A stretch of 64,000 nt of DNA from Elsinoe ampelina (GCA_010093995.1 ML992502.1:124001-188000), one strand, 5' to 3'. Shown: positions 500 through 24,548, numbered from the stretch's first letter. Numbers and translations: made by a program. The notes: generated by a model not told the origin, from the sequence alone.

Positions 500-1800
500 T
501 TAGTAGAAGCATTACATGCCGGCGCTATGTTATAGCTATCCCCTTTGTAATTAGGTCCGCCCTTAAGCACGTAACTTCTCTATAGGTCAGTTTAAATTTA
601 GGTAGACCGAACTAAAATAGGAAGGTATCTATGTACCTTTAGCGTGTATCCTCCTTATCTAATAACCCTTCTATAGTAGCAGCGTAAAGGGAGATATTCG
701 ATACTACTACAATAATAGTGAGCCTATTCTTCTCGACACACTCGGTAAAGCTAAGCTTTAGCTAACGAAAAATAAGAGCTTGTCTCTAGCTAATCTACGC
801 GAGGAAGTTATTTTAAATACTTAGTCGGACATAATCGAGTTCTAAGGGTTTAATGTAATAGAACACTACTACTCCCTTAGGTAAGTAGGACTTAATACTA
901 TCTACTTACTTAACTAAGAGCACATAAATTGTCGCTAGGAGGGAGGAGACGAGAAAGAATATCGGTTCCTAGAAGTAATAGCGAGTGCTATCTATTATAG
1001 CTAAGCCCCTATGTTCGACAAAGGCTACTCGGAAGGCTTTATATATTAAAGAACTCCTAAAGCGTTTCCGCTACTATACGTTAGTAGTTAATTAACAAGT
1101 ACATCTATCGCGTACTAGATCGCTATTCTTGCATTAATATATTTATTCCTCTAGTAGCTTACGTGCCTAATTCGGTAGCTCGCTATTCTTTAGCCCTTAT
1201 ATAAGCTATTCGCGCTAGAGCATCTCGCTTACTAATTATGTAATGTTATTACGACTGTAGTAGAGCACCTCTCGGAGCTAGACGTTGTTAGCGAGTAATT
1301 AACTTTAGCAAGTAATATACTTTGCTAGCTATAATTACGAAAGGGTATTTGCCTATTGTCCTCTATAGATAAGCTACTAGTAGCTGCTTATAGATCGAGC
1401 GCTAGTGCCTTGTAATTCGCGTAAGAAGCTATCGATTACTTAACGTTAGTAACATTATATTATAATTCTACCTAATAGCTATACTTACATGTAATTCGTC
1501 TTACACCGCTGCGAAGATGTCGCTATACTTGTTTAGTATGTCCTATAAATGTCGTTTTACTAACCGAACTAGCATAGAGGCTAACGCTAGGCTATTCTTA
1601 TCGGCTTATAGCTCTCTTAATCTTAGATCGAGCGTAGCGATGTCCGATCTATGCCTTCTCCTTTGTCTTTGATATTGTGTTTACGGCCTGCGTAGTTAGC
1701 CTAGCTCTCCTTACTAATAAAGCTATACTCTTCTTCGTCCTAGTCTACCTAACTTGAATTGTCGTCTTTGTAATAATTATCGGCCTTATAGCCTAAGCTA
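500..1800 (-). pseudogene. RIP-degraded unknown gene, possibly DUF6532-like
   Basis: Minus strand reads RKRFRSSLIYKAFRVAFVEHRGLAIIDSTRYYF*EPIFFLVSSLLATIYVLLVK, followed by a GTAAGT donor. This loosely resembles my recollection of the DUF6532 pattern; not verified. Confidence 0.3.
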
Positions 1801-3229
1801 TACTAACGCTAACGTAACTAGGACATTACTTATCCTAATCGTTTTAGTTAAGAGATATATAGGTATAAGAGAGTTTAGTACGACAGGCCCTAACAATATA
1901 TACTATAACGGGAATAGTCGTCTTATGCGAGTTATAGTGACTTAGCGTTAGTTTAAGTTAGATAATAGCTTAGTTTAGTATTTAAAGTACGCAACTTTCT
2001 TCTAATTAAATCTAGTTATACTCGCCTATACCCTACGGAAATTGTAACTAGCAAGAGTATTAAATTAAACTTGTAGCTAGTTCTAACTCGCGGCGTGCTA
2101 ATTATTAGAACCTAAACTAAAAAAGAAAGATACTCGAACTTACTTAGACTAAATGCTTAAACTAAACAAGGCATTCGTAGTTATATTAAGCAACACTAGA
2201 GGTAGAATATCGTAGAGAGAAATTGCAGATTAAACTTATACCGAGCAATTATAAACTAATTCGAGAGACTATAGGCATTAGCCCTTCTATATGTAGATAG
2301 GTAGCACAATTTATACTATAGCTCCCTCACTAATTACGCTAGTAGCTCCCCCTTTACCGAGTAGAATGTCTTCTAAGTGTTAAAAGCACTAATCGCTCTC
2401 TACCTCGTAGTCCGGTGTGTCTAAATAGAGTACGCTAGATAGAGATACTTGTTGTCTACTAATTATGTTACTACGAGGGGCAGGCGTTAATTAGCTATTA
2501 GTAACTATACTTAGTAATAGTAGAGTAGCACTATTAGTGTAGCGCCGTGTACTCTTGTCTAATCTAAATAAGCCTCTAAACTCTCTAGTAAGGTTTATAG
2601 AGGCGACGCTAAACCCCCGAAAAGCTTTACTAATATGCTTCCTAAGTACGAAGTTCTCTTACTATAGTTGTCTAATTACACTAGCGTTTTTCTCTATTAT
2701 TATTCGCAATTGGCCTACCTCCTACTACACAAGTGTAATATCTTCCTCTAAGAGTTGCTATCTATTAAGCTATTTAGGCCACTAAGTCCTATATTGCTTT
2801 TGCTAGCTACTAACGTAATTATGCTCTTCTTCTTACGTGTCTAGCGGAGAGCTTCTAAGCTAAGGCCTAGACTAGTTAGGTAGACTGTCGGAAGACTATA
2901 CTTCTACACCTAAACAAATAAGAGAAGCCTACGTGCTTAATTCTATAGTCTAGATGTTAGCCGCTAAAGAAACAAGGTTGGTATAGTTAATATATATACT
3001 TAGAAGCCTTATATAAGGATACTACTAGACTAAACAAATTAATTGTAGAAAGATAGCTTATACGAATAATTCTATAGGTCGATCTAGTTAGAAGGTAAGG
3101 AAGGATAAAGCGTGCTAGTTAAACTAAATCCTTGGGGTTTAGTAGTAGGTATAGCTTAGTAGGGCTTACCCGCTGCGTTTTAGTTCGACTTAGTCTACTA
3201 CTAGACTATTATACTTTATACTTGTCTCC

Positions 3230-3975
3230 GCTGGATGCTTCTCTTGATCTTGTCGCCTTATTAGAATATATAGGGGCGAACTATGTAATATCTTAGACAA
3301 GATAATAGTCTTAAACTAAATAGCATTCTCTATCGTAGCGAAATGTAGCGTTCTATCGTCCTTCTACCCTATTACATTGCTTTGCCTATTGTATATATAG
3401 TAGTCCGTCATAATCGATATTACTCTTAGCTAATTGAACTTGATATCTATATTCTTTTTAGATATGTTAGCTATAGCTTTGCGACGTATAAGTAGGAGAT
3501 CTCTAATCGAGTAGATAGGGCATATCTCTCTATCCTTACGAACTACTAATAGCATGTCGTCTAATTGATTAGAGAGCAAAGGCGCTTATAATTACAATTA
3601 GCAATCCGAGGATTTAATCGAGGTAGGCGTATTAGTATTGTTCTATGTCTCTCTAGGCTTATATAATCTTAAGTATAACTATACCTACCGACGTCTAAAG
3701 TTCGTGCTTATCTTATAGACAAGAGCACGGAAGGCAGCTTAACTGTCGCTGCTCTCTAATAGCTCTATCGTATGCTAAAACGTGCATCGGATGTTATTAC
3801 TATCTAGTGCTACTAGAAGCACCTCCTTCTCTAGCCTTCTCCTATTAGAAATTGACCTAAATGTTCTTCTAACTATGCCTTTACTTACTATAATATCCTC
3901 TAAGAGACTATATAAGTCTCTATAGCCTTTGTCGTCGAGGGCGAGAGCTTACTTAATAGCTTCGATTAAGCACAT
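3230..3975 (-). pseudogene. RIP-degraded ORF of unknown function
   Basis: From an ATG at 3975: MCLIEAIK*ALALDDKGYRDLYSLLEDIIVSKG...AAFRALVYKISTNFRRR. Protein-like, with stops of RIP type. Confidence 0.45.
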
Positions 3976-4233
3976 TACTAGTTAATAAGAAGTAGATATA
4001 AGTATAGCTAAGGAGGGCAGAGAGGGGAGGGAGAAGTAGTAGTATAGTTAGTAGTTAGGTAGGAGTGTTACTCGAGATAGATTAGCCTTAGAAGTTATAA
4101 GTCTTAGTTTGTAAGAGGTATATACCTAAGTGTTACTTAGTTATAATTAGTTAGCCTAAACTAAAACTTGCAAAATTTTAAAGTTCGATATACCTAACTC
4201 TATCTCTCTATATTTATGTTGTATGCTTGATCT

Positions 4234-5221
4234 GTAGCGATAGAGCTACATCGTATATACAATGCGTAATGACGCCTTAGTTCGTACTCTTCGCCTATAC
4301 CGACCTAATTATAGACGTTAGTGTCACTAGCGTAACCTATGCCCTCCCCTCTATCTAACCTCGACAATAGCTAACTATCTATTAAAGCGACGCCCCTACC
4401 TAGTATACTATAATTATCTATTGTCGTATCTATAATAGCGACGTTAATATTAACTCCTCTCTCGCCGCCGCTACTACCTCTATTAGTATCCTCTATACCG
4501 GTAGCGTAGTGTTAGTAGAATTAAACACCGTCTCCTCCTAGTAGTTATACCTAAGCAAATCTGTTATAGTGTACCTCTCTATTATACTAACTACGCCGCC
4601 GCGCGCCTAAGTATATGTAGGGAGACCTCGATACCTCCTCCCCTCTCGACGTTACTACTGCCCTCTATAGCATCCTCTATACTAATAGCGTAGTGTTAGT
4701 AGAATTAAACACCGTCTCTACCTAGTAGTTATACCTAAGTAAAGCTATGTTAATATACCTCTCTATCTTGCTAACTACGCCGATATAGGCTTCTACGTAC
4801 GTAGGAGATTTCAATAGCTCTCTCTCTTTTGCCGTCTCTACCTTCCTCTATAGCATTCTCTACACTAGCTACGTAGTATTAGTGAAATCTAATACCGTCT
4901 CCGCCTAGTAGCTACGACTAACCAAATCTATTATAGAGCGTCCGCCTACGCTACTAACTACGCTATTAGAGGTTCTAGCATATACGAAGAGAATAGAGAA
5001 GAAGGCGTCTACTAGAGATTATCTGCCTTATAAGATAAGAATGTTTAGGAGAGGTTAGTAGAGTTACAACTAGTGTAACAAAGGGGGAGAGATAGAGGCG
5101 CGTCGTAGGTAAGGCTACGTCTACTACCTCCTACTAGATATAAGCTTATAGTAGAAGGCATCGTAGGCGGAGCTATACTAGCTATGTCCTCCTTCGCTAT
5201 TGCCTTTATAGCGGGCCTAGG
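4234..5221 (+). repeat. Direct repeat R1, copy a (~1 kb), with three internal ~184-bp units
   Basis: Aligns colinearly with 11479-12466, differing mainly by transitions. Internal units start at ~4491, 4675 and 4858 (ctcta..c....agcgtagtgttagtagaattaaacaccgtctc). Confidence 0.9.
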
Positions 5222-6002
5222 TTATTAATAGCGCATTGTTATAACTCCCTAGTGTTAATAATATATTTCTTTCTACGCGGACTATACGCTTATTACTTTA
5301 ATTCGCCTTCTCTAACTAGTAACAAAATCTCCTTATCTACCGTATCTAAGTATAGTATATGTCTCTTTGTTCCTTAGTGTTTGTTTTGTCTATTGTCCGC
5401 TATAAAGATATTTAGATTGTCGCTTTACATAATACTACTCTTTATTAACACATCTGCTAAATGTTCTAGATATATATAACTCTACGTAAAGCGCCGATAT
5501 ACGTAGGAGAGATATATAAGCCTTCGGCATAGCTAACTACGTACCTTTAGTTAGACATATTTTGTTTGCTTACCTAATTTACGCCGTGTAAGATTTGTTA
5601 GTTGTAAACTAACTTAGTTCCTTTTAGTTCTAGCATCGAACTAATACTACTTACTGTTATATGCTATAATTAGCATATACGAAACATAGACTCTATTAAC
5701 TTAGTTTACTTTAGGTCGAGGCCCGAACTAGTTTTTAGTTACAAATTCAACTACCTACTTTAGTATATTATATTAAATATAACCTTTACCTAATTAAAGA
5801 ACTTGTTATTTACTTTCTACTTAGCATTTTAAATCTATATCGGATAATAGGTATGTATTATTACCGCCGATTACTCTATAGCGCTTACCTTACTATCCTT
5901 AGCTCCTAGCTATATAATCTCGACCTCTCTAAGTTTACCTATTCTACATAGCGTCTCTACTAGTTAATATTCTTATAAACATTAAATACATATATTAGTA
6001 CT

Positions 6003-7250
6003 ATGCCGAAAACGAAGAAGTTAACCGATACGCCCGGACCTATAGAAAAGATTCTACTTAACAAACTTACTCTAGCTATTGTTAAGAATGTGCTTATAGA
6101 GAACAATGTTAGTAAGAAATCCCTCTAATTCTTCTTTAAATAGGACAACTAGGAGTACTAGACTACGTTCGCGAGGATAAAGGAAATAATCTTAAAAGTC
6201 TTTACCGATTATAGTATTAAAATCGAGAAATAAGACAGAAGAAGTTTACGCAATAAAAATATACTTAATACACGCCTTAAAGTTAAGACTAACCTACTAG
6301 GTGGTATAGCATAGGATATAAAGCTCTTTATTAACTAACTAGATCGGAAAGATCTAGACTAGTTTATAGAGAACTTACGAACTATAAGTAGTATTGACAA
6401 GATAAAGGCTATATAGCAATTACTCCGAAATGTTATACAATTAATAAGGTTAGGTATTCTACTGTCGCTTAAAAGGGAGAGGATAACCTTACTAGGCAGA
6501 GGAGGCACCTAGAGTCTATATCCTTTAGCTACCTCGTCTACGTAAATACTAATACTCTCTAAAGTAAGAATACTGTCCTTAGAGAGATACACCGCTTATG
6601 TAAAGACAGGCGATAGGAGATTAGACTTACATACATAGTCTTATTATAGGGTCTTAAGCTTTAACTAGGCGTTAGTGTCTAATCATGTCCGGATCGATAT
6701 TAAATTTGCTATAATTTAGATTATAGAGGTTATCGAAACGGAATCTATCTCGTACCTAACATCGAGAAAGAATATTTACATCTACAACTTAAGGTTGCCT
6801 AGTCCTAGCAAGAACAATAATTATTGCATTATATACTTTATAAGTATACTTAGGTAGATCCTTAATCTTAAAGGTGATTTTCTCCGCCTCTACTAGATCG
6901 ATCCGTATAACTCTATATAGGTCTTCGCTATTGAAGACTCTTTCGATCTAGACGCCGCTATTACTAAGTATGTTATAGCTCTTGTCCCTAGTACCTACGA
7001 GATCTTTCTCTATCTTACCTCTTCTACAGCATTTATTAAAGACCTTCCTAACTTTATACGAAGTAAGTTAACCCCTTTACTATTCGTCTATATATACTAA
7101 CACTTATAGACAACTCTTATTAATATTGTAGTAGTTAGCAAGCACCTCCTATTGTCGAGACTAGTATAGAAGAGAACTTAGAAGTGCTTACTACTCCTAA
7201 GAAGCTTTGCTTCGTAGACATTAGCACGGAAAAAGAGTATAAAGGAGATT
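6003..7250 (+). pseudogene. RIP-degraded unknown ORF X, copy 1
   Basis: MPKTKKLTDTPGPIEKILLNKL...LY*IDPYNSI*VFAIEDSFDLDAAITKYVIALVPSTYEIFLYLTSSTAFIKDLP. Similar at protein level to 13287-14600. Confidence 0.6.
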
Positions 7251-10200
7251 AGCATAGAGAGAAACATAGAGAGAACATCGAGATGCTAGATATATAATAT
7301 ATATAATAGCGACAAAAACGCTAAAGGTAAGAGTAGTAATGTTATTATGTTTTATTTACTATTATATTATTCATAAAACAGTTTAGTTCTTAACTAATAA
7401 AGTTCTCTTAGTTTATTCTGCCCCTAAGGGACTACGGCCCCTATAAAGCCTATAATATCCCTATTGTCGTTATCGGAGGTAAATTTGCTTAATAGTTCTC
7501 CGACTATAGTTCGATAAATCTTAATCAACCTAGTAACTTAGTCTAGGATAGAGTCTTAGTTTACACAGCTTAAGAGAATATAGTCCCTACTTTCTCGCTA
7601 TAAGAACATAGCTAGTTTAGAACATAGCGTCGGCTACTAAGGTATTACTTATACTTATACTACTTTTACAACTTTAAGGATACCTTAGAAGCTATTGTAC
7701 ACCTATAGTCGGCTATTGATCTAGACGAACATAATCTCTCGGAGCTCTCTAATATCTCTCCTAGCTTCTACTTCTAAACTAGTAACTTCCTATATCCTGT
7801 TAGGCATACTATAATATAAGCGAGTAGAGAGAGCAAATTCGAGAATATTATACTATAGGGCACTAACTACTACAACATCAATATCGAGGAGGAGATTATC
7901 TCCTTTATATTATCGACAAGAGAGACCGAGTAATATTATAGTACTTTTAATAGATAAGGGCATTTAATAATAAGTAGGATAAGTTAGTAGGATAGGATCT
8001 CTTTCCCTAGTAATACTAGGAGCAATTATATAAGACTTAGTCCATGCTAAACTTAGCGTTAACTAAATTAAATAACAATAGTATAGTACTGTTAAGGAGC
8101 GCCGAGGCGTTACTACTAATATTATTAATATTTTACACTCTCGAGTGCTAGCGAGATTTATACATAGCATACTCGGAAATTAATTATAGTATAGAGTCCT
8201 TGTCGACTATTATTAGTGCTAGCTACTACCTCCTAACAAATAGCAGAGTTGCTTTAGGTTAGGCCGCGCCTCCTCTACTAACTACAAACTTAACTTAGTT
8301 CGATTAGCCTTAAGCTAGGGATAGATTTATTCTATATTAGGCCGAATAAGTCCTCCGGAGAAACACCCTAACGCTCTACTATCTTATGCCCCTCCCTGTT
8401 AGGCAATCGCTACTCGGCATTAGTATAGCTTTACTAACCACATACGTAGAAATAGTATTAAGCTTAACATTCGGTATAAGGTTAATTAGCCTAAGGGAAT
8501 AGATATAAACGCCTACTAGTTAACGACGGCAGCTTCGACATAGTAGAAGCTATTCTCTAGCTATAGACGGTAAAGACGTACCTATCGGAGGAAATAAGAG
8601 AGAATAAACTAGACACGATTTAACTTGAGATTACTATATAATATAACAAGAGGTAGCTCTCTATATATGCGATAGTAATATAAGGATAGCTAGAGCCTAT
8701 TAGGGCTCCCTTTTCGTAAACGGGATAGCCGCTTTCTACTTCTAGTTTAAAATCTTCGCTTTAGTCCCTATATAGGTAGCTAGACTTTTAAACATTTCTC
8801 TCGCGATGTAATTTAACCTAATTACGAAACATCTAGTAGCTACGCCTACTTCCGAGGCTTATTAGGTACAAGATATTTCTAACTCTAACTCTAAAGTTTT
8901 AATTAAGAACAAACATCTTATTTCTTTAGTAGTACTATAGACATAAATCGCTCCGCGTATAAGAGCAGGTATATAAACTATAGTTATAGAGACGTAGCAT
9001 AAGAAAGAGTAGTCCGAGGATGTAATCTGTTTAGAGAGCAAAAAGAATTTAGTAGTACAAATGCTAGATGTTGTTACAAGCTTACTTCCTTTACCTATTT
9101 ACCCCGCTAGTGTAGAAGGAACTATATAATCTACTAACATTATAGAAGAGCTTAGGAACTTTAACAATTGCTCTATAGACTCTCTTCGAAATATACCTAG
9201 GGTAGAAGCAATAAATAAGCATATATACTAGTACTATACTAGCTTAGGAATATAGGTCCTTTGTGTTATTATTCCTAAGATTATAGAATAGAACATCTGC
9301 GAGTTAAAGACTATAAAGTAGCGAATTATCGTCTATATACGTACGACTATAGTGCTAGTAGTAGCTACAATAGTTAGTTCGACCTATGTAGTTCAGTTCG
9401 GTTATTACTAACTAGAGTAAAGTATTAGGGATGCCTCGAGAGACTTCTAAGAAGCTAAGTAATTAGGATTAATAAGGGCGCTAAAGTCGTTATAGTTTAC
9501 TATAGAAAGACACTAACAGAGAAACGCCTAGACATTATTAAAGTAGCTATATCTAACTAATTTTACTTCGAGGAGGTTATACTAGTTAGTTTGCAACTTT
9601 AGATTGCGCTTAGTCCGGTAATACAAATAGAGTAATAGTACTCTTGCCTTAATACTATAATCTTGCTCGATAGGGATTTAGTTTATAGATCTATTCGTTA
9701 GGCCTTTAACAGTCGGTAGAGAATACAATATCTACCTACGTAGATGCGAAAGATATATTTATACTTAAACTAACTACTCTATCCTCGTAGTTGAAGAAGT
9801 AGCTTAATAGTACCTACGGTACACTAACGATAATATAGAATATTATATATAATAATATAGCAAAGTAGACAATTGAACTAAGCATAGTTATTTAAACTAA
9901 AAAGTAAATCACCGAAGGTTATTTTATTAGTTTACTCTTGTTAAATATAGTTACGGGAAACCCGGTACTACTTTTCACCTAAAATTTAAAGTTTTAGTTT
10001 AGCGAACTAATCGCCTACCCCTAAAAGGCATAAACTACCTAACGTTACGCAGCCGAAATAGGTTTACCTACCCCCTTTACTCTCTATTAGTGGAGGCTAT
10101 TTATAACCGACTTAATATACTACCGGCGACAAGTCGAGACATAATATAGTAAGAACTATAAATTATTTACTAGCTAGAATAATAGGGCCTACGTAGCACC

Positions 10201-10380
10201 TCTACTCTATAATTGCTATAATAGTCTCGGCTAAGCATAATAGCGCGACAATAGCTAATTAAACATATTAGCTAATATTGTCATTAGCGGAGAGCTAGTC
10301 GATAATCTCTATTATATAGATACACTAGAGTAAACTCTATCGTAATAGGTCTAGTACTATAGTAAGGACATAATTTTAGC

Positions 10381-10885
10381 TATAATCCGTTAACGCTATC
10401 CGATAACTTAGTTCGTTTAGCTCTACTACAAACTACAAGGACTAAGAATCGAACTAAGTAATAAGGTAGAGACAATAGTCTATAGTTAGCGCGGGGTGTC
10501 CTCCCCCCTTCGCCTACTATATAGTATAACACACCGGACAATCCCCTTAGTCTCTTTACTAACCTTAACTATTATCCTCTAGCACGTAGAGTAGATAGCG
10601 ATAGTAGTAGTAGGCTTAACTACGTCGCGCACGAGGAAGAGAAAGGCACAGAAGAGGTTATAAGAGAAGGTATATACAAGGAAGAGCAAGTAATTACAGT
10701 AAGTATAACTAGTAGTATATCTACGGGGCGGAGTGCTAGGAGATTATCCTCGTCTAGTAGGGCTACATTCGATTATACCACGTTTAAGATAGCTACTAGT
10801 ATACTAGCTAGTAGCGAAGAGTTAGTAATAGATAGTTTATACTCAGTTTGCGTAGACTAATATTGTCTAGGTCTCCTACGTATAA
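10381..10885 (+). repeat. Direct repeat R2, copy a (~0.5 kb); matches the 5' part of the Plavaka ORF region
   Basis: Colinear with 17727-18237 (e.g. actacaaggactaagaa..gaactaa...aaggtagagacaatagtctatagttagc). Confidence 0.9.
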
Positions 10886-11478
10886 GACACATTCTCTAGC
10901 CCGAGTAATCGACAAGATATAGCTTTTAGCTAGGTACTTTAATCTCGGTTCGACGCTCTAACGTCTAATAAATAGTAAGCCACTAAACGCATAAATCACA
11001 CTCGAGGGGGTCGTTATAGTATAGGAACTTCTAGTAGGATACACTTATAGCGAACTACTAGCCCTATATATAGCGCTTTAACTACGATACTACTACCTAA
11101 GGGTGCTAAAGATATATTTAAATTGCACGTGCAAAGTATGTAGTGGTCTAAATAACTACAAAACATGGCTTGCTAGTAGGAATCTTAGTCGGCTAGAATT
11201 TAGCAGGGCTAATTGTTGCTTTACTCTCTCTAGCTTGTTATATTTAGCAGCGGTAAGTGTCGGCCAGCAGAGAGAGCTAGTAGTTTATCACGTCGAACTA
11301 ACAAGTTGTTAGTCTACTCTTTCGAAGTTTAAGAATGACCTAAATTTCAGCTACGGGCGACTAAGCAAACCGAAGTACACTTACGAAATGCCGTCCGGTT
11401 TTAGTCCTCTCTAAAGTGTCTTCTCGTTTAGAGACTAGTAATCTCTATAGCATTATAAACGCGTTATATACCGTGTAC

Positions 11479-12466
11479 GTAGCGATATAGTTTTATTATA
11501 GATACGACTCGTAATAACGCCTTAGTTCGCCCCCTTTGCCTGTACTAACCTAAACGTAGGCGTTAGTATTACTAGCGTAACCTCCGCTCTCCTCTCTATC
11601 TAAGCTCGACAATAGCTAGCTAGCTATTATAGCAACGCCCCCGCCTAGTGCACTATAATTATTCGTTGTTGTATCTACAATAATAACTTAAATATTGACT
11701 TCTCTCTCGCTGCTACTACTACCTCTATTAGCATTCTCTATACTAGTAGCGTAGTATTAGTAGAATTAAATAACGTCTCTACCTTATAGTTACACCTAAG
11801 CAAATCTGTTCTAGTGTACCTCTCTATTATGCCGACTACGCCGCTACGGACCTAAGCGTACATAGGGAGACCTTAATACCTTCTTCCCTCTCGACGTTAC
11901 TACCGCCCCCTACTATATCCTCTACACTAGTAGCGTAGTGTTAGTAGAATTAAACAACATCTCTACCTAGTAGTTATACCTAAGTAAAGCTATGTCAATA
12001 TACCTCTCTATCTTACTAACTACGCCGATATAGGCTTCTACGTACGTAGGAGATTTCGATAGCTCTCTCCCTTTTACTGTCTCTACCTTCCTCTATAGCA
12101 TTCTCTACACCGGCCGCGTAGTATCGGTAGAATCTAATACTATCTCTACCTAGTAGCCACGACTAAACAAATCTATCGTAGAGCGCTCTCCTACGCTACT
12201 AACTACGCCGTTAGAGGTTCTAGCGTATATAAAGAGAATAGAGAAGGAGGTGTCTACTAGGGAGTGCCTGCCTTATAAGACAAGAATGTTTAGGACAGGA
12301 TAGTAGAGTTACAACCGGTGTAATAAAGGGGGAAATATAGAAGTATATCGTAGGTAAGGGTACGCCTGCTACCTCCTTCGAGCTATAAGCTTATAGTAGA
12401 AGGCATCTTAGGTAAAGCTATACCTATAGCGTCCTTCTTTACCGTTGCCTCTATAGTAGAGCTAGG
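11479..12466 (+). repeat. Direct repeat R1, copy b
   Basis: Colinear match to 4234-5221, including the three internal units. Confidence 0.9.
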
Positions 12467-13286: not shown

Positions 13287-14600
13287 ATGTCTAAGAATTA
13301 GCCTAATAGTGCTAGCTAGGCCATAAGCGAAATTCCGCTCCACGAGAGATCTTCTATAGATATTTAAGCATAGCTCAATTAGAACATTAAGCTTAAGGCA
13401 TTCTTCCTTAAATTCTTTAACTAGGACGACGATATATATACTACCGCACACATAAGGGTATAGGAACTATATAAGGATACCTATACGTCTTTCGAATTAA
13501 ATTATAAGGAACCTTAGACTAGTAACGCTAATATAGCTACAATTATAATTAACATTAAGAACAACCTATAGGACTCTTAGTAAGGCTATATAGAGATCTT
13601 CTTCGGGAGACTAAACTATTAAGATTAAGACTAGTTTAAGAAGAACATCGGCATTATAAATAATATATCTAGCTATAATGTTATTAAGGATTTCGTTCTT
13701 AGCATTAAGGCGTAAGAGCTTAGAAACGAGAAGAACTAGACTAAAGTAGACAAGAGAGCACATCCTAAGAAGTAGATTAGAAAGTGCTACTCCGCTACCT
13801 AGTCTAATAGCGGACTCTCCGAAAGATTAGAGACTTCTATACTTAGTAGCGGACTCGCGGGTATAGGTCTTAATAGCTGCACTAGTTAGCCTATACGTTA
13901 GTAGTAAATGCTAGAAGACATATCCTGTCTAGTCTAGAGTATTATTAACAAAACTATTATCGAGTTTATAAGTGTTAAGCATTTAGACGTTAGTCCGGGC
14001 GTAATTATAAAAAGAGAATGTTTGTGTTGTCTATAGGCGTTAAGTCTATAGTACTATCGACGAGATAAGGACACTTACGATCTAAATGTATATAGCCTTA
14101 ACAAAATTAGGCTATTTCTAAAGGAGAAGAAATTAATTAGCAATAATATTATACTTGTATAGATAGACTATGTAGAGCTATATAAGATCCTCCCTATCAC
14201 TAACAATTATAACCTACGTGCCGCTATTATTAACTATGTTAACTCCCTAATAGAAGGTTCTAACCTAATCTTCTTCTATCTTACGCCTAGCACAAATCTC
14301 GTTAAGAAACTTCCTACTAAAGTACTTTATAAGTTTAATACTTAGTTTAACTCGGGTGTTTACTAACATACTTAGTCGACTCTCTCTAGTATTGTAATAG
14401 TTAGAAGCTATTAGCCCTAGTCAAGGGTAAAGAAGAAGATAATCCTCTAGCTCCTCTATCTCCGACTAAGATTATACTACCGCGTAACTCTACCTCTAAA
14501 AAGCGAATTACCTCTCTACTACTAGCTAACGATAATTCTACTATCGAGTAGCGCCCTACTCGAGTAACAGAAGACAAATACCACAAGCAATGCCGAGACA
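13287..14600 (+). pseudogene. RIP-degraded unknown ORF X, copy 2 (divergent paralogue of 6003-7250)
   Basis: MSKN*PNSAS*AISEIPLHERSS...LV*IDYVELYKILPITNNYNLRAAIINYVNSLIEGSNLIFFYLTPSTNLVKKLP. It lies the same distance (~0.8 kb) downstream of R1 as copy 1. Confidence 0.6.
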
Positions 14601-14899
14601 TAGATAAATATCCCTTTATAGTTATACTAAGCGAAGAGTTAGCTAGATACTATATTCCGCTAGTCCCTAAGGAGCTATCTATACCTATACTAGCACTAGC
14701 AAAATGCACGTTTAATAAGACCCTTAGCAGCTTAGACTTTATTAAACTTTACACTATTAATAACAATAACGACGAGTAAACTAGTAATAATCTAGCCTAC
14801 TAGAGCTTTATCCCCGTAGGTACTAGAATCGATTACTAGTCCGAAGAGTTCTAGGAAAGAGGCTACAACTTTATAGGCTTTAAGAAAGACATTTACTTA

Positions 14900-17270
14900 C
14901 TAAACGCTAGTATATTTTATTAGCATTAGAACAAGAAGTATCTAGTTAAGGTAGCATAGATATACTTAGCACTTGTTATAATTAAGAAGTACCTCGAAGG
15001 CTACCTAGCATTTATGTTTATATATAAGATAGAATTCAGGAAGACTCTAATAGGCCTCTTTATGCTCTATCTCCTTTTACTCTTAAATAAAGAGGTGCTA
15101 AAGAATCGTAGATACGCTACTATATCTAAGGAGTAATAGAGCAAGTACCGGAAGGCAATAACACTTATCGACGACCTATAGCTAACCGTTGGTTCTGCCG
15201 ATACTATTAGCTACAATCTGATTCTTAGAGAATTAAACGTAATAAAACAGTAGGCGCGAGAGACACGTAAGTTTATACCTAAGGCAAAGATCGTCCTATG
15301 CTAGGGAAATTTAAACAAAGAAGTATAAAAGACAGAGTATAGCAACGTATATAATATAGACTCTTTAGTTCGCAAAGAGGATCTGCCTAAAGGCTGCCGT
15401 AAATAGGAGACTTAGCTAAAGGATCGAAAGACTAGTAAGCTTGTTAATACTATTAGAGTTATAGACCTCGTCGACATACGTAATAAGCACCCTAAGAAAG
15501 TATAGATAAATAATTAGTTCTTCTTTACTACTTGCAATACTATAATTAACTACTTCCTCGGCAAAGACGATATAGATACTAATAACTAGGACTTTGTTCC
15601 TAGGGGAGCTAAGAGGAAGAAGGGGGCTATCTCTATCTATTAGGCCGCTATTATCTTCGATGAGTTCTACTAGGTCACTAGCTAGAAGACGCAGACCTAG
15701 TCCTGTCTAGGAATGCTACTAGAGAGGCCTTTTATACTAGGTATAAGTAGGACGCTATTTATTAAGTGCTTAAACGTAGTAGCGTTCTTAATAGCTGCTA
15801 TATATAAGGACTTTAGGTTAGAGAAGCTCAAAAATAGAAAAGGAATAGAACAATATATTAACACCTATATCTATAAATCTAGTTAGGAGCTAACTAAGTC
15901 TAAAGATAACCTAGTTCGAGCAAGGCTAAAGAAAGAACTAGATGCTACTCGATAAGCTATTACTAACAAGCTTAACTTCTAAGAGGTATTAGACTATACC
16001 TACGTAATTAACAAATAGTATAAGGCGAATAACGACTCTAGTAAGTTTAATAAAAAGGGGAGTACGGAGTTTATAGTAGAGATCTCTATAACAGTTACTA
16101 AATAGGGCTATATCCTTACTGAAATTCTTATTAAGATAAATGTAGACTATGTCTAGAGACTATTCGATGCTGCCCCCGGTCTACTAGTAGTTAGAGTCCT
16201 ACTACATTCGACATTCGACCTAGAGATTACTATCGAGGATAAGTATCTTTATAGTCTTATAGCTATATAGAAGAAGATCGAAAAGAATATAGATAAGAGT
16301 ATATAGGAGACAATCGAGAAGTAAAAGGATAAACCTAATAAGTCCGAAGTTACATTAGAGACAATTCTTAATAAGAAGACTAAGGAGCAAATACTAAGCC
16401 TAGTTACGCCGCTACTGCTTTTCTCTATGTTCCTCGCTCTTATAGATATCTTCTAGGACAGCCCTACGGTTAAAGAGGAGTTTAGCAACTACACTGTTAA
16501 GTACGCCTATAATATTATACATAACTCCTCGGCAATAGTGTTATAGTAGCATATAGACAAGATTTACGCTAGTCCTTAGATGTAAGTCCTTTATAGTGTT
16601 ATTTCCGAGATTATTAAGTAGAATATCTCCTACTCGAAGCAGTTAAAGAGGTAAGTAATTGTCTATACGTTTACACCTTTAGTGCTAGCAGTCGCTACAA
16701 CGGTTAGTTTAGACTATTTAGTCTAATTAGGTCATTACTAATAAGGGCATAGTATCTAAAATAGCTTAAGTAGTACCTAGACGGCAAAGCAATTAGGATC
16801 GATAAGGATTCTAATGTGGTTGTTATCTACTATAGAATAACACCTATACCTTCCCGTATAGACATCGTCGACGTAGCTATATCTAATAACATGTTTATTA
16901 AGCCCCCGAGGCTAGAAGGTTTAAGGATCCTAATTGCTTAGGGTAGGGCGATTAAGACTAGTCTAAACCTTAACCGCTTCGACACTATAATCTTGCTTAA
17001 TATAGCGTCGGTGCTATAATTAGTTCTCTAGTGTCTCGCCTAGGTCTATAGGAATATTAAGTCTTAGAAGGCTAACTATATAGAGGCGTTTATAATAAAG
17101 CCGACAGCCCTATTCTATAGGCCTTAGAAGTAGCTTAATAATAGACAGGGTAGGCCGTCGATAGTATAGAAAGTTATCTACGAAGAAATAGAGAAGTAGA
17201 GAGCTAAGATATAGGTACGCGTACGAGCTATAGCGAAGAAGGATACGGTTAATCTAGAGAAATAATTAAT
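14900..17270 (+). pseudogene. RIP-degraded SNF2/SF2 helicase-ATPase
   Basis: Motifs occur in the expected order. ~15020 YKIEFRKT de-RIPs to HEMGFGKT (motif I). ~15650 AIIFDEFY de-RIPs to DEFH (II). ~15740 GISRTLF de-RIPs to GISGTPF (III). ~16960 SLNL de-RIPs to GLNL (V). ~17029 *CLA*VYR de-RIPs to QCLARVHR (VI). Confidence 0.8.
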
Positions 17271-17620
17271 ATTGCTAGATAAATAGCCTAACTATATCAC
17301 TTAAGAATATGATTCCTTAGTTTAGTAGACCGATTTAGGTGCTAGTACATGTTAAACTATCTTTTAGGTGAACTAACATAATATAGCGCCTAAACGTCTT
17401 ACTTCCTACTGTCGTTACAAATCTAAAGCGCTAATTCTAACTATAAATACAAATATTAAGCGATAAGAACTAATATGCTAAAGCATATCACTAAATGCTC
17501 GGCCTATAGAAAGATTATATAATCTAGTAGAGGCCTTGTCTAACATCTACTATATTGCTAGAGAAGAGAGCTACTAATAAGTAACAAGGTATAAGTCTTA
17601 CTAGATTAATGTACTAATAG

Positions 17621-20600
17621 ATATCTCCGCGAAGACGACGCTAGTAATAACTCTCTCTTCTCTAATAGGGGAGAGCGCTTACTGTCTAATAAAGACTAAC
17701 GAGGTAGCATTAGTAGCAATAGTTAGTATAATCCGCCAACGCTAAATAACCTAGTAGTCTACTTAACTCCGCCGCTAACTACAAGGACTAAGAACCGAAC
17801 TAAACAACAAGGTAGAGACAATAGTCTATAGTTAGCATAGAGTGTTCTCCCCCCTTTGCCTACTATATAGCATACCACAGCGGACAATCCCCTTAGTCTC
17901 TTTACCGACCTTAACTATTATTCCCTAGCACGTGGAGTAGATAGCGATAGTAGCGGTAGACTCGGCTATATTACGCACAAGGAAGAGGAGGGCACGGAAG
18001 AGGTTATAAGAGAAGGCATATACAAGGAAGAGTAAGTAATTATAGCAAGTACAACTAGCGGTACATCTATAGGGCGGAGTACTAGAAGATTATCCTCGTC
18101 TAGTAGAGCTATATCCGATCGTATTACGTTCGAGACAGTTACTAGTATACTAGCTAGTAGCGAAGAGTTAGTAATAGATATAGTTTATACTTAGTCTACA
18201 TTAACTAACGTTGTCTAGATCTTCTTAAGTGTATAACATGTACACTAACATATATAATAAACTAAATCATAATTAGTTAGGCGATACTTAACTAAAGGAA
18301 GCCTTTATTAATAGTATAGACGCTAGTCTTGCCTAGTGGCTTATTAAGGAAAAACTTAGTAAAGCCGTAATTACGTAATTACTTAAAGACCTACGTATAT
18401 AACCTCTAGTAGAGAGCCTTAGTTAGCAAACTACGAATAAACTAGTAGAGAAGATAGAAAATTTAGATACGGCCGGAGGCATTAATAGCTAGCAGACCTC
18501 GAGCTTTATACTAAACACTAATCGTGGGCCTAAAAGATATACGTTCTAGTATCTAGATATCCTCCTAGCGATACGCTTCTTGCTTAGTCATTGTAGCTTT
18601 ATAGTAGACATAGACTATAGCCCGTATAGAGTCTTTATAGAAGCTGTCGAGGGTAAGCCGCTACGACAAGTGTACACTAAAATAGTAAGTAGCGACTAGT
18701 AGTAGGACATATAAGAGCGACTTAGGATAGCTAGAGCTACTATTATCCTATTAATCGTCGCGAGTAATTAGACCTAGGTAATAAACCATTAAGGGGATCT
18801 TATAGCACATGCTATCTATCTATTATTAGGCAACCTAAAGGCAGAAGCACGTAATAGCAACAACTAGCCGGGGTAGTTACTAATCGGCTTACTTTCTATT
18901 ATTAAAGACAGTAGGAATGTCGTTAAGGAGAAGACCTACTACGCTTATATAAAGAAAATCTTTAACCCTATTATCGATTACTACTCGAGAGGGGGTAAAA
19001 CAATCTCCTATACGGATAGAAAGAGGTAGAGGTGCTTCCCTATACTTGCCGCTATACCTACGAATTACGCTAAACAGGTTACTATAACAGGTATAAAGTT
19101 ACTATATTATTATATAAGCTACCTTATTAGCAAAGATAAGAGAGAGAACCTAGTAGTTACTATACTATTCCGAACTTACTACTCTACGTAGCGATAATAG
19201 CACTTATAGAGAGAGGCACGCGAGAGTTAGTAGTAGAGCAAAAAGCTAGATATAAGCTCTTAGGTTTATAAGGTTAGTTACTTCGCGTAGGATCTTCCGT
19301 ATACTAATATTTACTACGTAATAGTACTAGATATTCTATACTAACTTCTTAAAGGCGTTTTAATACACGTCCTATGCTAGATTTAAAAATTGCTCTAGGA
19401 TTTAATACCTATATACAAATTACTACGGTATATAAAGGCTAGAGAGACTATGTAGCAAATAAGCTACTAGCGCTTAGCAAAGGAGATTATACTTAATATT
19501 ATTAACAAGCGCTTCGATAGCATACTAGTGTTTCCTAGCATCTAACACTTCTCGTACTACTTGGCTATTAAGCAATAGACAGGTTAAGAGTAGAAGAGTA
19601 TTATACGCTAGATACTTCTAGTATTTGTACTATTACTCGAGGAGGTTAAGGCGCCTTAAGCTATTAAATTTATACGCGCACTAGTCGACTTTATATTGCT
19701 AGCGAACTATAAGACCTACAACGACGATATACTCCGGTATATTAACCTTGCGCTCTTTAGAATAAACAAGTACAAAGAGACCTTCCGGGCCTACTATAGC
19801 AACAGGAAAGAAGAAAGTAACTTTAACTTTCCGAAATAGTACTTAATAATACATTTTTTAAAGGCTATCTATGATTTTAGAGTAGTTACTAGCCTCGATT
19901 CTAATTATTTAGAGCATAACTATGTCTACTTTATTAAGGACGCCTTTAAACTTACAAACAAGAAGGCTAGATAGGAAGACTAGGTTACTACTTATAACAC
20001 TAAACTAGTAAATATATTAGCGGCATTCGACAACCCCTCGAAGTTAGTTAGGCTATCGGCTACTAAACTAATTAAGATCTAGAGTACGTCGGTTAGCGTA
20101 AGCGATACAGTTAATGTCACTTCTTAGTTCGGCTAGCCTAGTACTAAGGGGGGGGCTATATAGCGTATAGTTAGAGAACTAGAGGCGCTTATTAATATAC
20201 TACCTAGGCTATTATTATAGTAAGTGATAGCAGTGTTTGTCCGCGAGGCTTGTTAAGGTATAGCCGACATAGGCTCTAGCTCGATAACTAAATACCCTAA
20301 TTAGTTCAACGCCGAACTAGATCCTAATAGACTCGAACTAGATTCTTCCTAGGTTAGCGACCTCTACGTTAAGTTCTACTATTCTTTAAAGTGTAGAAAG
20401 CTATCCGACTATAATTCTAATAATCCTAATGTAGACGAACTAAACTTTATCCGGTATATAACTAAATAGCAAGAGATACGTAGTAATAAGAGGCAAGACT
20501 AGCTCTAGGTGCAAGAATAGACAACGAATAATAAAGGCACTATCGGAGCATTACCCGATAGCCTCTAAGGTAAGTTACTAGCTCGAATTATATTTATAAT

Positions 20601-21012
20601 AACTATAGAGGATAGCTTCTAGTCTAGTAGATCGGGTCGACGTTAATGCCTATACTACATAGGAGCGCTAGTAGATCTATACTAGCCTACTCGGCCGGAT
20701 AGAGCAGCTAATCGAGAGCATAGTATAACACTAATTAAGCCTTAGACGAATCGATGCGATAGAGCTAGACGAAACGTACTTACCGGTAGGCGTATCTACT
20801 CTACTTCGTAAATCTACTATAGTATCTACATCGTACCGGTAGATAAGACAAGGCCGAATAGCTAGATATATATTAATAACACAGCCGACTTTAATATATA
20901 TAACATACTATAGAATAAGTCGTAGGAGTCTAAGTAGCTCTACCTAGCTAAGGCTTCTAAACGAGAGAGGCTAAGATCCCTAGGCGTAGTTAGTAAGCGT
21001 AAGAGGCATTAA
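17621..21012 (+). pseudogene. Plavaka-family transposase, RIP-inactivated
   Basis: VYTKIVSSD***DI*ERL de-RIPs to VYTEM.SGDWWWDMQ. Also ATIILLIVASN*T*V, AIYLLLGNL, LDILY*LLKGV (PDILHQLLKG), KQ*TG*E*K, RALVDFILLANY, NFNFPK*Y, FIKDAFKLTNK and C-terminal YINNTADFNIYNIL. These are motifs I recall from Plavaka transposases. Start approximate. Confidence 0.88.
17727..18237 (+). repeat. Direct repeat R2, copy b (low-complexity 5' part of the Plavaka ORF region)
   Basis: Colinear with 10381-10885. Confidence 0.9.
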
Positions 21013-21369
21013 CGAAGCTTAAGCACTCCTTCCGTAGCTAGAATAGTTGTCTCTTACGTCGACCGCCTTGCCTTAGGTACGCTTAGGTCAACTACTAAAC
21101 TATATTAGGTAAAAAGGATAAGATAATATCCGTAGGTATTACCCTAGCTAGTTAGTTTACACCTATACGTTATTAGGTTAGTCGCTAAACTATATATAGT
21201 AGGCGGCATAAGACGCCTTACAACAATCTCCTATTAAAGGGCTAGTTTGCCTCTATACTAATTACAATAGCTTAGGAAATTATAGCAAGGCGTTATAGAT
21301 GTCTCTTAGCTTTTAAGAAGTTTAGGTATCCTATACATATTTTGCAACGGCAGTAAAAAGTGTAGGTAA

Positions 21370-23000
21370 ATAAGTAGTTATTAGGTTAGTTTCGTAGATA
21401 GACTTAGGTCGGCGATCTAAGAGGTTTGCTTCTTCTCTATTATAAGTCCCCCGATAAGACTAGCTTATAAGACCCTCTCTAAAAGATGCTTATTAATTTT
21501 AATATCTATTCTAGCTACGGGAAGCTTATCGAAGAAGGACTTGCCCCTATAGAGAGTAACAACGCTAGAGAGTTTCTACTTAATGCCTTCTAGGGAGTAG
21601 GGGACAACATAGTATATAACTATAACTATAAGTAGCTACGTAATATAGGTATAGAGCTACTTAAGCCTAGGAGAAGAGAAAACTTAGGTGTCATCTTCGT
21701 TAGTATAGTAAGTAGCCTCTTCCTTATTCTCTAAAGCCTCCTCTATATCTACGTAGATCGTAAGTATTTACTTATAAGATCTTTAATGTATAATATATGT
21801 AATAGATCCTATCTATAAAATTATAAACTAGATTATCCTTATACGTACTATTACTAGCTCTACTACTACTACTACTTAGTAGTAGTTATAGTAGAGTAGC
21901 GGGATGTAGTGAAAGAAAGTGTCGTTATACTTGCCTCTACGTAGGGAATATCCCTCTCCTCTCCTTTGCCCTTATCCGCGCCCTCTGCTATAGGGAGGTA
22001 TACCGTAGCTAAAGCTACTACTACTACGTCCTCCGCGGAAGCTACTACCGCTACCTTATCTACTATAGGCACGACCTTATAGCAGGTCACGCCGGAGAGA
22101 TTAGTGCGCTTTAAGGTGGCCTCGTCTTTAACATATAGCACTACATTTAAGAGTAGTAAGCTTAACCTAGGTACTACTTCCTTTACTTCTCCGATTGCTA
22201 GAACTAGCACCGGACAGGCCGGCAAGGCAGGGGCTAACGCTAGTATCAAGCTAGGAGGAGGTTAAGGAGGGGGAAGAGAAGGAGCTTATAGTTATTAGTA
22301 GTTACCTCCTTACCGGCTATATTATATAGCGAGGTAATCGAGGGGGCAGTATAAGGATAAGGCAGCTCCCCTTAATAGAGAGTAGATGTCCCTAGTACTA
22401 CCTTCTAGGCTACTCTAAGAGTATACTAAGATCTGTTAGGCCTTGCTTCTTAAGCTACTCTTTAGCGGCCCTAAAGTGCGTCTTTTAGTAGGTGTACTAG
22501 TCGGTGTTAGTCGACCTAAAAGAAGTCGGCTTAACCTGAACTAGATATCTACTATATCTCTTATACCTGTCCGTGTTAGTGTTAATCTTCTTAGAGTAGG
22601 CCTTAACCTTGCTACTACGGCCGCCGTTAACGTAGTACATCTAGCTTCTGTCGTTGTTCTCCTCCTACGTAACTGCTATAGACTAATAGCTGCTAGAACA
22701 GACCTAAAGGTATACGTACTCTATCTTATACCTAGCCTTAGCTATTATAACAAACTTCTTTTCTAGGAACGCTACTTTACATTTACAACTCTAGCTTAGG
22801 AATACTACTCTATAAGAGTCCTCTATACTAGTAACAATACGGGTTGCTAGGTAGCAGAACTTATAGGCGACAGCTATATAGAGCTACTTCTCGTTGTAAA
22901 TAAGCTTAGTCCCTAGCTAGATAGTCGCACGAAACTACTTATAGCTAATAACACCGAGCCTCTTAGTAGTAGAGCAGAGATAGTAGAGTATAATAAAACA
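21370..23000 (-). pseudogene. RIP-degraded unknown gene convergent with the transposase
   Basis: Includes surviving ORF 21872-22249 and an upstream protein-like frame (LYIAVAYKFCYLATRIVTSIEDSYRVVF...). No family recognised. Confidence 0.4.
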
Positions 23001-23112
23001 AGGTTATTTTAGTTTAGTCTATTACTTATGTCGGAAGGTAGAGAACTAAGCAGGAAATGTCTACTTTTATACCCTTGTAAAAGTGCTTCTACGCTTAATC
23101 TCGCTAACGCCT

Positions 23113-23191
23113 TTAACTAAATTTAGGTAGGTTTAGTGCGTTAAACTAAATTTAAGTAGGTAGGGGTGCGTTGAACTAAATTCAGGTAGGT
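23113..23191. repeat. Three ~30-bp tandem repeats (consensus gtgcgtt[a/g]aactaaatt[t/c]aggtaggt), candidate subterminal repeats
   Basis: Three copies are directly visible between 23113 and 23191. Confidence 0.7.
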
Positions 23192-24548
23192 AAGATACGT
23201 TTATAGCGACCTAACGTAGTTAAACTTAGTCTAACGCGGGGAAACCTAATATTCTAACTCTCTACGCTTAGGGATTTCGTAACGTAGTTAAGGGCCTTAA
23301 GCTTAGTAACTATATTAAAGGCGTTAATATATATATTATATAGGATAGATAGAAGTAGCTTATATACGTACTTACTATAGGCGTAGTATTTACACTTATA
23401 ATAGAAAAAGATACTAAAGTTGCCTCTAGTATAGATATAACCTACTACGAATTAGTTATATCTCTTATAAGAGCTCTATTAGCTTACCCTTAGTAATACT
23501 ATTAGTATACCTAGTATAGGTGTTAGCCTTCTCTTTAGGAAGTAAGAGAGTTATAGAGTTAGCGCTAGTAGTAATAGCTCCCTAGGCGCTAGTAGACCTT
23601 ACGCTATAAGTATTAGCTATAGAGAGGCTAGAGTTAAATAATATAATAGTTATAGGTAGTATACTTATATAGTAAGAGGTTAAGAAAATATAAATATATT
23701 TTAGATAGAAAAGAAAAATATAAGAGAGAATAATAAGATTATATAGACTAACCTCTAGTATACTATATCTTTATTATAGCTACTAGTATAAGGTATATAT
23801 CTCTTATAATACTACTAGAAATTCTAAGAAAAGTAATATTATTACTACTAATTAGCTTTAGCGCTATAGTAACTAGACAAATACTCCCCTAGGAACTAGA
23901 TTCCTAGGACTACTACTACTAGATATTATATAAGACATATATAAGGCCTTTATAAAAATACCTTAACTATCTTATACCTATATTACTTCTAAATAATACT
24001 ATACATTATACACTTCTAGTCGAGAGCTAAGGATAGCTCTCCTAGAGGAGGAGGCAATTATAAGAGCTTAGTATTAGAGCGACACTTAGTAGCGGCTAGT
24101 CCCGCTTATATAATATACTTAAATATCCTACGTAGCGCTTATACCTAGAGCTTAATAGTAATTAGTTCTACTACTAACAGACTATTCGGTTAGATAGGCG
24201 TTCTCTATATTACGATATATATAGCTTTAATATAAGGCATTAACACTAAACTTAGTAATTAGTTTAAGTATAGTTAGTAGAGTTAGTAAATTTAGATTAA
24301 TAAGGTACTTATTAGTAAATACTAGTTTAGTCTTTAAGATAGAGAGTAAGAAGTCTCTCTATAGCCTTAAGCCTTAAGCTTCTAGTTAGAGCCTTTATAT
24401 GCCCTCTATAGAGAGTATATAAAGGCTTAACACGTAGCTACCCGGGCTAGTCCGCCTATCGACGCGAGACAGCTAGCGTCCGGTCGAGATCTAAGGTGCA
24501 CGATAGGTCTATAAGTGACTACCCCGGCGGCTATATAGTTCCCTTAAA

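Follow-up and report, generated by a model that had tools for sequence, protein, structure and literature searches.

A RIP-inactivated Plavaka transposon of Elsinoe ampelina that probably carried a divergent SNF2 helicase gene

Results

We analysed 64,000 nucleotides of the Elsinoe ampelina genome (GCA_010093995.1, ML992502.1:124001-188000; hereafter the window), the left part of which is an AT-rich tract degraded by repeat-induced point mutation (RIP). Relics of a SNF2-family helicase gene and of a Plavaka transposase gene lie in this order on its plus strand, and the same arrangement is found in one un-RIPed relative. Judging from sequence, the core of the tract that can be identified is a DDE cut-and-paste transposon of the Plavaka family, with CACTA/EnSpm elements as relatives. 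We consider it probable that a Plavaka element of ~9.6 kb with both genes (11479 to ~21050) is preserved here, together with a truncated sister copy and unrelated RIPed repeats. In our best reading this element (copy B) is the only full copy, containing both genes, and a partial copy in the same orientation (copy A, 4234-10900) lies upstream of it; 1-4233 and 21.05-25.0 kb would belong to other repeat families.

Transposase and helicase relics

An initial annotation of this DNA had recognised a Plavaka transposase relic, and the Pfam profile agrees, with PF18759 matching 18520-19371 (+) over profile positions 38-321 of 325 (E 3.3e-28; 99.3 bits, cut-off 26.3). The relic is full length and occupies a single frame at 18244-21027 (+), interrupted by 66 in-frame stops. 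An exhaustive phmmer search with the region 17710-21300 returned 980 relatives at E ≤ 1e-3, of which 333 had E ≤ 1e-10 and 33 had E ≤ 1e-30; the strongest match, to a 905-residue protein, runs in one stretch from residue 3 to residue 892 (E 8.9e-115). PF18759 was present in all 16 phmmer relatives scanned, and a helicase domain was found in none of the 16 database Plavaka proteins scanned. All 155 BLASTP segments from the 150 relatives listed fall in one frame, at 18133-21027, with none elsewhere in the tract, so the transposase gene is complete and has no frameshift. Some database Plavaka gene models are fused to other domains, such as an Ulp1 protease in P0094 (1656 residues) and DUF913 in P0124 (1919 residues).

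The 66 stops, spread over 928 codons, comprise 49 TAG, 17 TAA and no TGA. Fifty-nine of them could be aligned to the intact protein of the contig L001, described below, and 35 of these stand opposite tryptophan (16), glutamine (11) or arginine (8). This pattern is the signature of CpA-directed RIP, as in the change of TGG to TAG. The absence of TGA fits a strict CpA preference, by which TGG becomes TAG and not TGA. Canonical Plavaka proteins have 130-340 residues ahead of the point that aligns to ~18283-18304, and a block just upstream of the frame (R2b, 17709-18250) is probably, on its sequence and position, the first exon or the N-terminal region of the transposase gene.

Further upstream, at 14303-17262 (+; the start is extrapolated), is the SNF2-family helicase relic, which the initial annotation had likewise pointed out. 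It was delimited by a RIP-aware alignment, in which each codon is scored as a mixture of its possible pre-RIP ancestors (T from C, A from G), to two proteins, P0151 (873 residues) and P0152 (941 residues), both carrying the Pfam domains SNF2-rel_dom (PF00176) and ResIII (PF04851). Against the window, the plus frame scores 211.0 with P0151 (null 57.9 ± 4.0) and 261.1 with P0152 (null 64.6 ± 2.3), each null coming from 6 shuffles and the best of six frames. The N-terminal lobe and the linker are in one frame at 14822-16738, opposite P0152 residues 174-763, and in the traceback of this part 114 of the 646 columns are identical and a further 126 are RIP-compatible. Past a frame change, helicase motifs V-VI follow at 16921-17262 (P0152 residues 807-903); this C-terminal lobe scores 52.3, a value that none of 12 and none of 40 shuffles attained. 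By the alignment to P0152, the relic thus contains the N-terminal lobe and the Helicase_C lobe of the SNF2 family, with their motifs in order.

Plain BLASTP between the relic, with stops read as X, and the same two proteins gave collinear segments at 15218-15796 (E 1e-3), 15659-16681 (E 2e-4) and 16127-16738 (E 0.015), and a further one at 16927-17217 (E 1.4). SNF2-like motif strings are visible by eye in the plus frame at 15.2-15.8 kb. Motif II has an unusual form in this family, DEFH, and the relic reads FDEFY, the change from H to Y being of the RIP type. By these alignments the SNF2 relic is real and a member of a small and divergent SNF2 family, which counts 3 proteins at E ≤ 1e-10 among the 8000 candidates scored, one being a hypothetical protein of Polychaeton citri. 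None of the solved structures matches the family at E ≤ 1e-3. A 36-bp tandem repeat (1.9 copies) is present within the linker of the relic, at 16264-16332.

An un-RIPed relative

A search with the closest transposase relative led to L001, an un-RIPed metagenome contig of 5813 bp with a GC content of 0.53. Its Plavaka open reading frame (ORF; L001 2207-5008) is intact, with 934 codons from stop to stop and a Pfam match of E 2.2e-73, and the protein aligns to window positions 18244-20970 (E 2e-134). Ahead of it on the same strand, a helicase ORF (L001 3-632) runs off the contig start and carries Helicase_C (PF00271; E 1.6e-6, 28.8 bits, cut-off 23.5). This fragment shares 95% identity with P0151 and 62% with P0152. 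The order and strand of the SNF2 and transposase genes are therefore alike in two unrelated genomes, and the gap between them is ~1.0 kb in the window (17262 to 18244) and ~1.6 kb in L001. At the position of R2, L001 has an upstream ORF of 245 codons (stop-to-stop) with a zinc-finger-like motif, which is probably the first transposase exon.

Because the window and L001 agree in order, strand and spacing, the Plavaka transposase and the SNF2 helicase appear to belong together, a linkage that the comparison supports. The initial annotation had looked to a gene order conserved across copies and bounded by common termini as a check: the order recurs at one outside locus, L001, and common termini were not found. 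No further locus came from the collections of prokaryote-genome and viral contigs. In L002, a metagenomic relative, a direct repeat of ~320 bp with 80% identity (1376-1696 and 2551-2875) is found downstream of an intact transposase and may be a subterminal repeat. The downstream ORFs of L001 and L002 gave no signal against 20900-25200.

Duplicated unit

The SNF2 relic is part of a unit that occurs twice in the tract. Copy B, the proposed whole element (11479-21050, +), comprises a 5' block with tandem units of ~184 bp (R1b, 11479-12526, +; units at 11672-12247), 1.8 kb, the SNF2 gene, R2b (17709-18250, +) and the transposase gene. Copy A (4234-10900, +) is a partial copy of the 5' part and consists of R1a (4234-5281, +; three ~184-bp tandem units at 4424-5000), a degraded interior and R2a (10376-10900, +), which is a copy of the block just upstream of the transposase frame in copy B. 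Copy A has no transposase main reading frame and stops where that frame would begin. A spacer of 578 bp (10901-11478) lies between the copies. Self-comparison gave the direct repeat pairs R1 and R2, spaced almost equally, and the sequence was then recoded as purine/pyrimidine, a code blind to RIP transitions. The tandem periods within R1 are 183-184.

Copy A and 11479-18250 run collinearly, 7245-7346 positions apart. On this homology, 4234-18250 represents two head-to-tail copies of a ~6.7-kb unit. The homology starts sharply at 4234/11479 and ends at ~10900/18250, and the flanks ahead of R1 and past R2 are unrelated between the copies. The paralogous segments of the initial annotation correspond to the R1 and R2 pairs and are now seen as parts of this longer unit; its proposal that R2 ties the upstream module to the transposase also holds, since R2b ends at ~18250 and the transposase frame starts at 18244, and in both copies the upstream module adjoins the start of the transposase gene.

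The R1 pair (4234-5281 and 11479-12526) shows 82% identity, with 817 identical positions, 133 transitions and 32 transversions over 982 positions, and the R2 pair (10376-10877 and 17723-18225) shows 83%, with 376 identical positions, 67 transitions and 9 transversions. In the purine/pyrimidine code both pairs are 97-100% alike. Since their differences are almost only transitions, the copies of R1 and R2 were nearly identical before RIP. In the interior, patchy similarity above controls was found in the same code and on the same diagonal at 6001-6450, 6901-7200, 7501-7800 and 8851-9900, and four interior segments, aligned globally, each scored above controls made from reversed, shuffled and unrelated RIPed sequence. 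Six-frame BLASTP links 8361-10845 to 15685-18191.

Divergence along 4234-18250 is a mosaic unlike that of a simple duplication, nearly transition-only in R1 and R2 and rich in transversions in the interior. Recombination or gene conversion between diverged members of the family is one possibility. A simple tandem duplication was rejected, because the homology ends at 10900/18250 and the interior is far more diverged than R1 and R2. We also rejected R1 as the long terminal repeat of a retrotransposon, given that no reverse-transcriptase or integrase signal and no third R1 were found. Compared with 1-4233 and 20900-25400 on both strands, the spacer (10900-11478) had no match above shuffled controls, and as it matches nothing there, it gives no indication that copy A arose by internal deletion with retention of a 3' end.

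Abundance and limits of the element

This DNA was found in only two sequencing runs (X1 and X2), both of one sample, and their contigs were aligned to 11300-24500 at an identity of at least 80%. There were 4810 matching contigs in X1 and 3492 in X2, only 1040 and 538 of which were at least 99% alike. Differences in X1 amounted to 292 A>G, 340 C>T, 293 G>A and 291 T>C, while each type of transversion was seen 6-19 times. Because the contigs are many and diverged by transitions, each block of 11300-24500 is multicopy with RIP-type divergence, which bears out the earlier suggestion that these sequences were multicopy. Multiple genomic copies, as in Plavaka families, are thus present, with depth being a proxy and not a count.

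Summed contig depth per 441-bp bin, which is not a copy number (contigs with an exact match have a depth of ~135-175), changes in steps along the region. In X1 it is 1793-2986 over 11300-13063, 3475-6465 over 13064-17914, 6902-12309 over 17915-21001, 1068-2186 over 21002-23206, 12530-17588 over 23207-24088 and 45494 over 24089-24500. Right past the end of the transposase frame it falls about four-fold, from 8226 (20561-21001) to 1976 (21002-21442), and it then increases by a factor of more than ten at 23.2 kb and once more at 24.1 kb. This fall and the later rises are compatible with a 3' end near 21.05 kb and different repeat families beyond it. Both proposed limits of the element are indirect, 11479 being the start of R1 homology and ~21050 the depth drop, read from a 441-bp bin.

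A 15-mer located right at the end of the transposase frame (20983-20997, +) is an inverted copy of a motif of the R1 tandem units and a candidate 3' subterminal site. It has 5 matches for 0.18 expected, four on the minus strand in R1a and R1b and one on the plus strand at 20983-20997, although the four R1 copies are not independent. Extended to 37 nt, the alignment reaches 37.0, just short of the highest null score (37.5), which is borderline. By analogy, the arrangement would be as expected of CACTA-like subterminal binding sites. An inverted pair at 18230-18259 and 23313-23342 was rejected as termini, as it is AT-rich, low-complexity sequence. Of the inverted matches between the start of R1 and the end of R2, and between the 5' or 3' regions and the rest, none scored above shuffled controls.

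The change of depth at the transposase could also mean a nest of independent repeats, in which the ~6.7-kb SNF2 unit is a separate family and a small Plavaka element (~18.2-21.05 kb) landed beside it. The depth of the unit (3475-6465) indeed differs from that of the transposase (6902-12309), R2 homology breaks off abruptly at ~18250, within a few bases of the frame start at 18244, and no common termini were found. Nonetheless, we regard such a nest as unlikely. The un-RIPed L001 contains SNF2 and then transposase in a like order, strand and spacing, and the inverted 15-mer connects R1 with the 3' end of the transposase frame. Moreover, a 5' limit at 18.2 kb would cut the transposase gene, because canonical Plavaka proteins need 130-340 residues upstream of ~18290.

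The initial annotation had instead proposed one gene-carrying Plavaka element of more than 20 kb, from ~500 to ~23300, with its left end outside the window. The gene-carrying part of this proposal is supported, through the SNF2-transposase pair and L001, and the single large unit is not, given the two-copy unit and the depth steps. In its favour, the RIP tract is continuous, all blocks examined (11300-24500) are multicopy, and red algae are known to have Plavaka elements of 17-19 kb that contain accessory genes and tandem repeats (bioRxiv 10.1101/2025.02.11.637652). However, 4234-18250 is two copies of one unit and not unique cargo, depth drops to about a quarter at 21.0 kb and grows more than ten-fold at 23.2 kb, and nothing ties 1-4233 or 21.05-23.3 kb to the rest. 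Nor does the continuous tract delimit one element, since RIP runs to 25.0 kb through further repeat families. We therefore give an element of this size very little credence.

Beyond the probable 3' end of the ~9.6-kb element, 21051-23206 is a RIPed repeat of lower abundance by summed depth, and 23207-25000 holds other high-copy RIPed repeats (summed depth 12530-45494). Neither sequence similarity nor any gene connects 1-4233 or 21.05-23.3 kb with the element. The short tandem repeats noticed earlier at ~23.1 kb lie in the lower-abundance repeat, at 23115-23192, with a period of 30 and 2.6 copies; a contig joint that skips 59 bases (23138-23198) shows variation in the number of these 30-bp repeats in other copies. 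The high-copy part contains a near-perfect palindrome of 366 bp, 85% self-complementary, at 24548-24913 (also 24377-24439). The palindrome is located ~420 bp from the stop codon of a RAD26-like gene, at the right edge of the RIP tract, and its block has the highest abundance proxy, ~300 times the depth of exact-match contigs. In a contig of the same sample, the sequence to the right of ~24421 is joined on its left to GC-rich, non-RIPed DNA, and as another copy starts there beside GC-rich DNA, a separate repeat family has one of its ends at ~24421.

RIP tract and flanking genes

The tract covers 1-25000, on the evidence of GC content and the composite RIP index. All 25 of its 1-kb windows have GC of 0.30-0.43, TpA/ApT of 1.57-3.06, (CpA+TpG)/(ApC+GpT) of 0.12-0.52 and a composite RIP index of 1.05-2.71. 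From 25001 to 64000, in contrast, all 39 windows have GC of 0.50-0.61 and a negative index. The continuous RIPed tract described earlier for 500-23300 is thus RIPed as stated, with its right limit moved to ~25.0 kb. A bias from CpA to TpA and copy differences dominated by transitions, both typical of RIP-affected repeats, are present. The tract is a graveyard of RIP-inactivated repeats next to core genes.

Six-frame translations of 1-24902, with stops as X (12 translations of 4150 residues), were scanned against Pfam, and the only family obtained was the Plavaka transposase PF18759. Frames outside the transposase and SNF2 genes gave no family or homologue, and the at least three further ORF relics of the initial annotation thus gained no support.

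On the right, the tract abuts the core chromosome, its edge lying ~330 bp from the stop codon of a RAD26-like SNF2 gene (25339-29109, -; SNF2-rel_dom E 4.7e-84). Other core genes of this flank encode a short-chain dehydrogenase, PPIP5K, Utp21, homoserine dehydrogenase, Pex14, Ndc80 and seipin, among others. Amid these ordinary fungal core genes, an ORF of 489 codons from stop to stop (49836-51302, -) contains a domain like the catalytic domain of Tle1 (PF09994, E 1.2e-86), a phospholipase effector of type VI secretion.

Starships, giant elements of fungi, are headed by a DUF3435 tyrosine recombinase, the captain. A Starship or other giant element, with its captain to the left of the window and with Plavaka and SNF2 as passengers, would be compatible with a tract whose left end lies outside the window. 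No DUF3435 match was obtained in the six-frame scans of 1-24902, where RIP lowers the sensitivity, in the 17 ORFs scanned (of 54 ORFs of at least 150 aa at 25-64 kb) or in the RAD26-like ORF, in line with the earlier remark that no captain is seen; the right flank consists of core genes. Of the alternatives, we consider this the least probable, with hardly any weight given to it.

Discussion

The reading we favour for 11479 to ~21050, a SNF2 and transposase Plavaka element, supposes that its family multiplied and so became a target of RIP, which would have introduced C-to-T and G-to-A changes throughout each copy (TGG to TAG, CAA/CAG to TAA/TAG). R1, with its 184-bp tandem units, would be the 5' subterminal region, and ~21.05 kb the 3' end. 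The SNF2 protein may have aided transposition, by opening chromatin for excision or integration, or counteracted heterochromatic silencing. The locus itself is a dead fossil, its present role being probably limited to that of an AT-rich, presumably heterochromatic block beside a DNA-repair gene. More broadly, it could belong to an undescribed Plavaka lineage of filamentous ascomycetes, with a divergent SNF2 ATPase as a conserved accessory gene, kept as RIP fossils and as intact, possibly active environmental copies. We propose this lineage tentatively, at slightly less than even confidence.

Several results weigh against the favoured reading, the first of them concerning the helicase. The SNF2 relic itself has no Pfam match at E ≤ 0.1, and neither a word-indexed protein search nor a phmmer search of PDB at E ≤ 10 gave a SNF2 match. 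In a RIP-aware alignment to the core of the RAD26-like protein of the window no frame stood out, and a second such alignment scored 35.5 (null 33.1 ± 3.8). With six RAD26 motif blocks chained together, the scores were 83.6 and 88.3 (null 88.5 ± 4.9), and the motif pair DE.H and [ST]GTP was counted twice, with a probability of 0.355 of at least one occurrence under the null. All these negative tests predate the finding of the specific relatives (L001, P0151 and P0152). Since the RAD26-based alignments and the motif chain stayed at the null level, the relic is no close relative of RAD26, and we rejected the idea that it is a RIPed duplicate of the neighbouring RAD26-like gene.

Other such results concern the unity and the ends of the element. 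The interior of the duplicated unit differs by 12-17% transversions, against a few percent in R1 and R2 (3% and 2%; 4-5% in another measurement), and the corresponding SNF2 region of copy A, although homologous as DNA, has no significant SNF2 signal as protein (1 of 25 shuffles reached its score of 63.9, and 12 of 25 its score of 58.6). Depth climbs gradually from ~1800 at R1b to ~12000 over the transposase; because R1 is less abundant than the interior, it is doubtful as a terminus common to all copies. Terminal inverted repeats were not found, RIP-tolerant inverted alignments staying within shuffled controls, and the motifs TGT..ACA and CATCA..TGATG were not seen, by eye only, at the start of R1 and at 21.0-21.3 kb, where RIP would blur short termini and limit such a search. 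The outside linkage comes from one contig of 5.8 kb, which begins within the SNF2 gene and in which no element end is seen. The upstream ORF of L001 resembles R2b weakly (56.6, reached by 1 of 60 shuffles) and has no match with R2a (score reached by 36 of 60 shuffles).

For annotation, the case indicates that heavily RIPed relics invisible to Pfam are recoverable by means of an un-RIPed relative and codon-wise scoring of pre-RIP ancestors. The linkage of SNF2 and Plavaka, if true, would also offer a way into an orphan SNF2 family, for which 3 database members were found.

Among known systems, CACTA/En-Spm transposons are two-gene elements with subterminal repeats and a DNA-binding protein of the TnpA type as the second gene. 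The element proposed here is alike in that its two genes share a strand, and in that motifs repeated towards one end have an inverted counterpart close to the other. It differs in its second gene, a SNF2 ATPase and not of the TnpA type, and in that no CACTA termini were found. With Starships the locus shares the character of a large, repeat-rich and often RIPed insertion in an ascomycete genome; unlike them, it has no captain gene that could be found in the window, and its identifiable mobile gene is a DDE transposase. Some transposons fight host silencing with genes acting on chromatin or DNA marks, such as VANC in VANDAL elements, PAG1-3 in Plavaka of red algae and TET/JBP in both KDZ and Plavaka of fungi, and a transposon-borne SNF2 remodeller, if true, would add a new kind of tool to this list.

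Plavaka elements are described in PMC12730594 as cut-and-paste and EnSpm-related, ending in TGT..ACA or CATCA..TGATG and flanked by target-site duplications of 2-3 bp; the same paper distinguishes two fungal lineages, PlavakaA and PlavakaB, related to CMCT/EnSpm, and reports families that carry a TET/JBP dioxygenase gene. The relic of the window resembles these fungal elements in its Pfam Plavaka domain, its close full-length relatives and, as in some of those families, an accessory gene; it is unlike them in that the accessory gene is a divergent SNF2 ATPase instead of a TET/JBP dioxygenase, and this copy is dead. Outside fungi, Plavaka is stated to be widespread in Archaeplastida (bioRxiv 10.1101/2025.10.09.681428), and elements of 17.4-19.1 kb with PAG1-3 and tandem repeats dominate the genome of the red alga Bostrychia (bioRxiv 10.1101/2025.02.11.637652). 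These share with our element the combination of a transposase, accessory genes acting on chromatin or DNA and internal tandem arrays. Their accessory genes encode methylase/SET and ParB/2OG-oxygenase proteins, whereas a SNF2 protein is found here, in an element of about half the size and in an ascomycete host with RIP. No description of a SNF2 gene in Plavaka was found in the literature searched, which excluded the original 2014 description and the supplements of PMC12730594. As far as these sources extend, a gene-carrying Plavaka is an already known kind of element, and the new part would be the SNF2 accessory gene.

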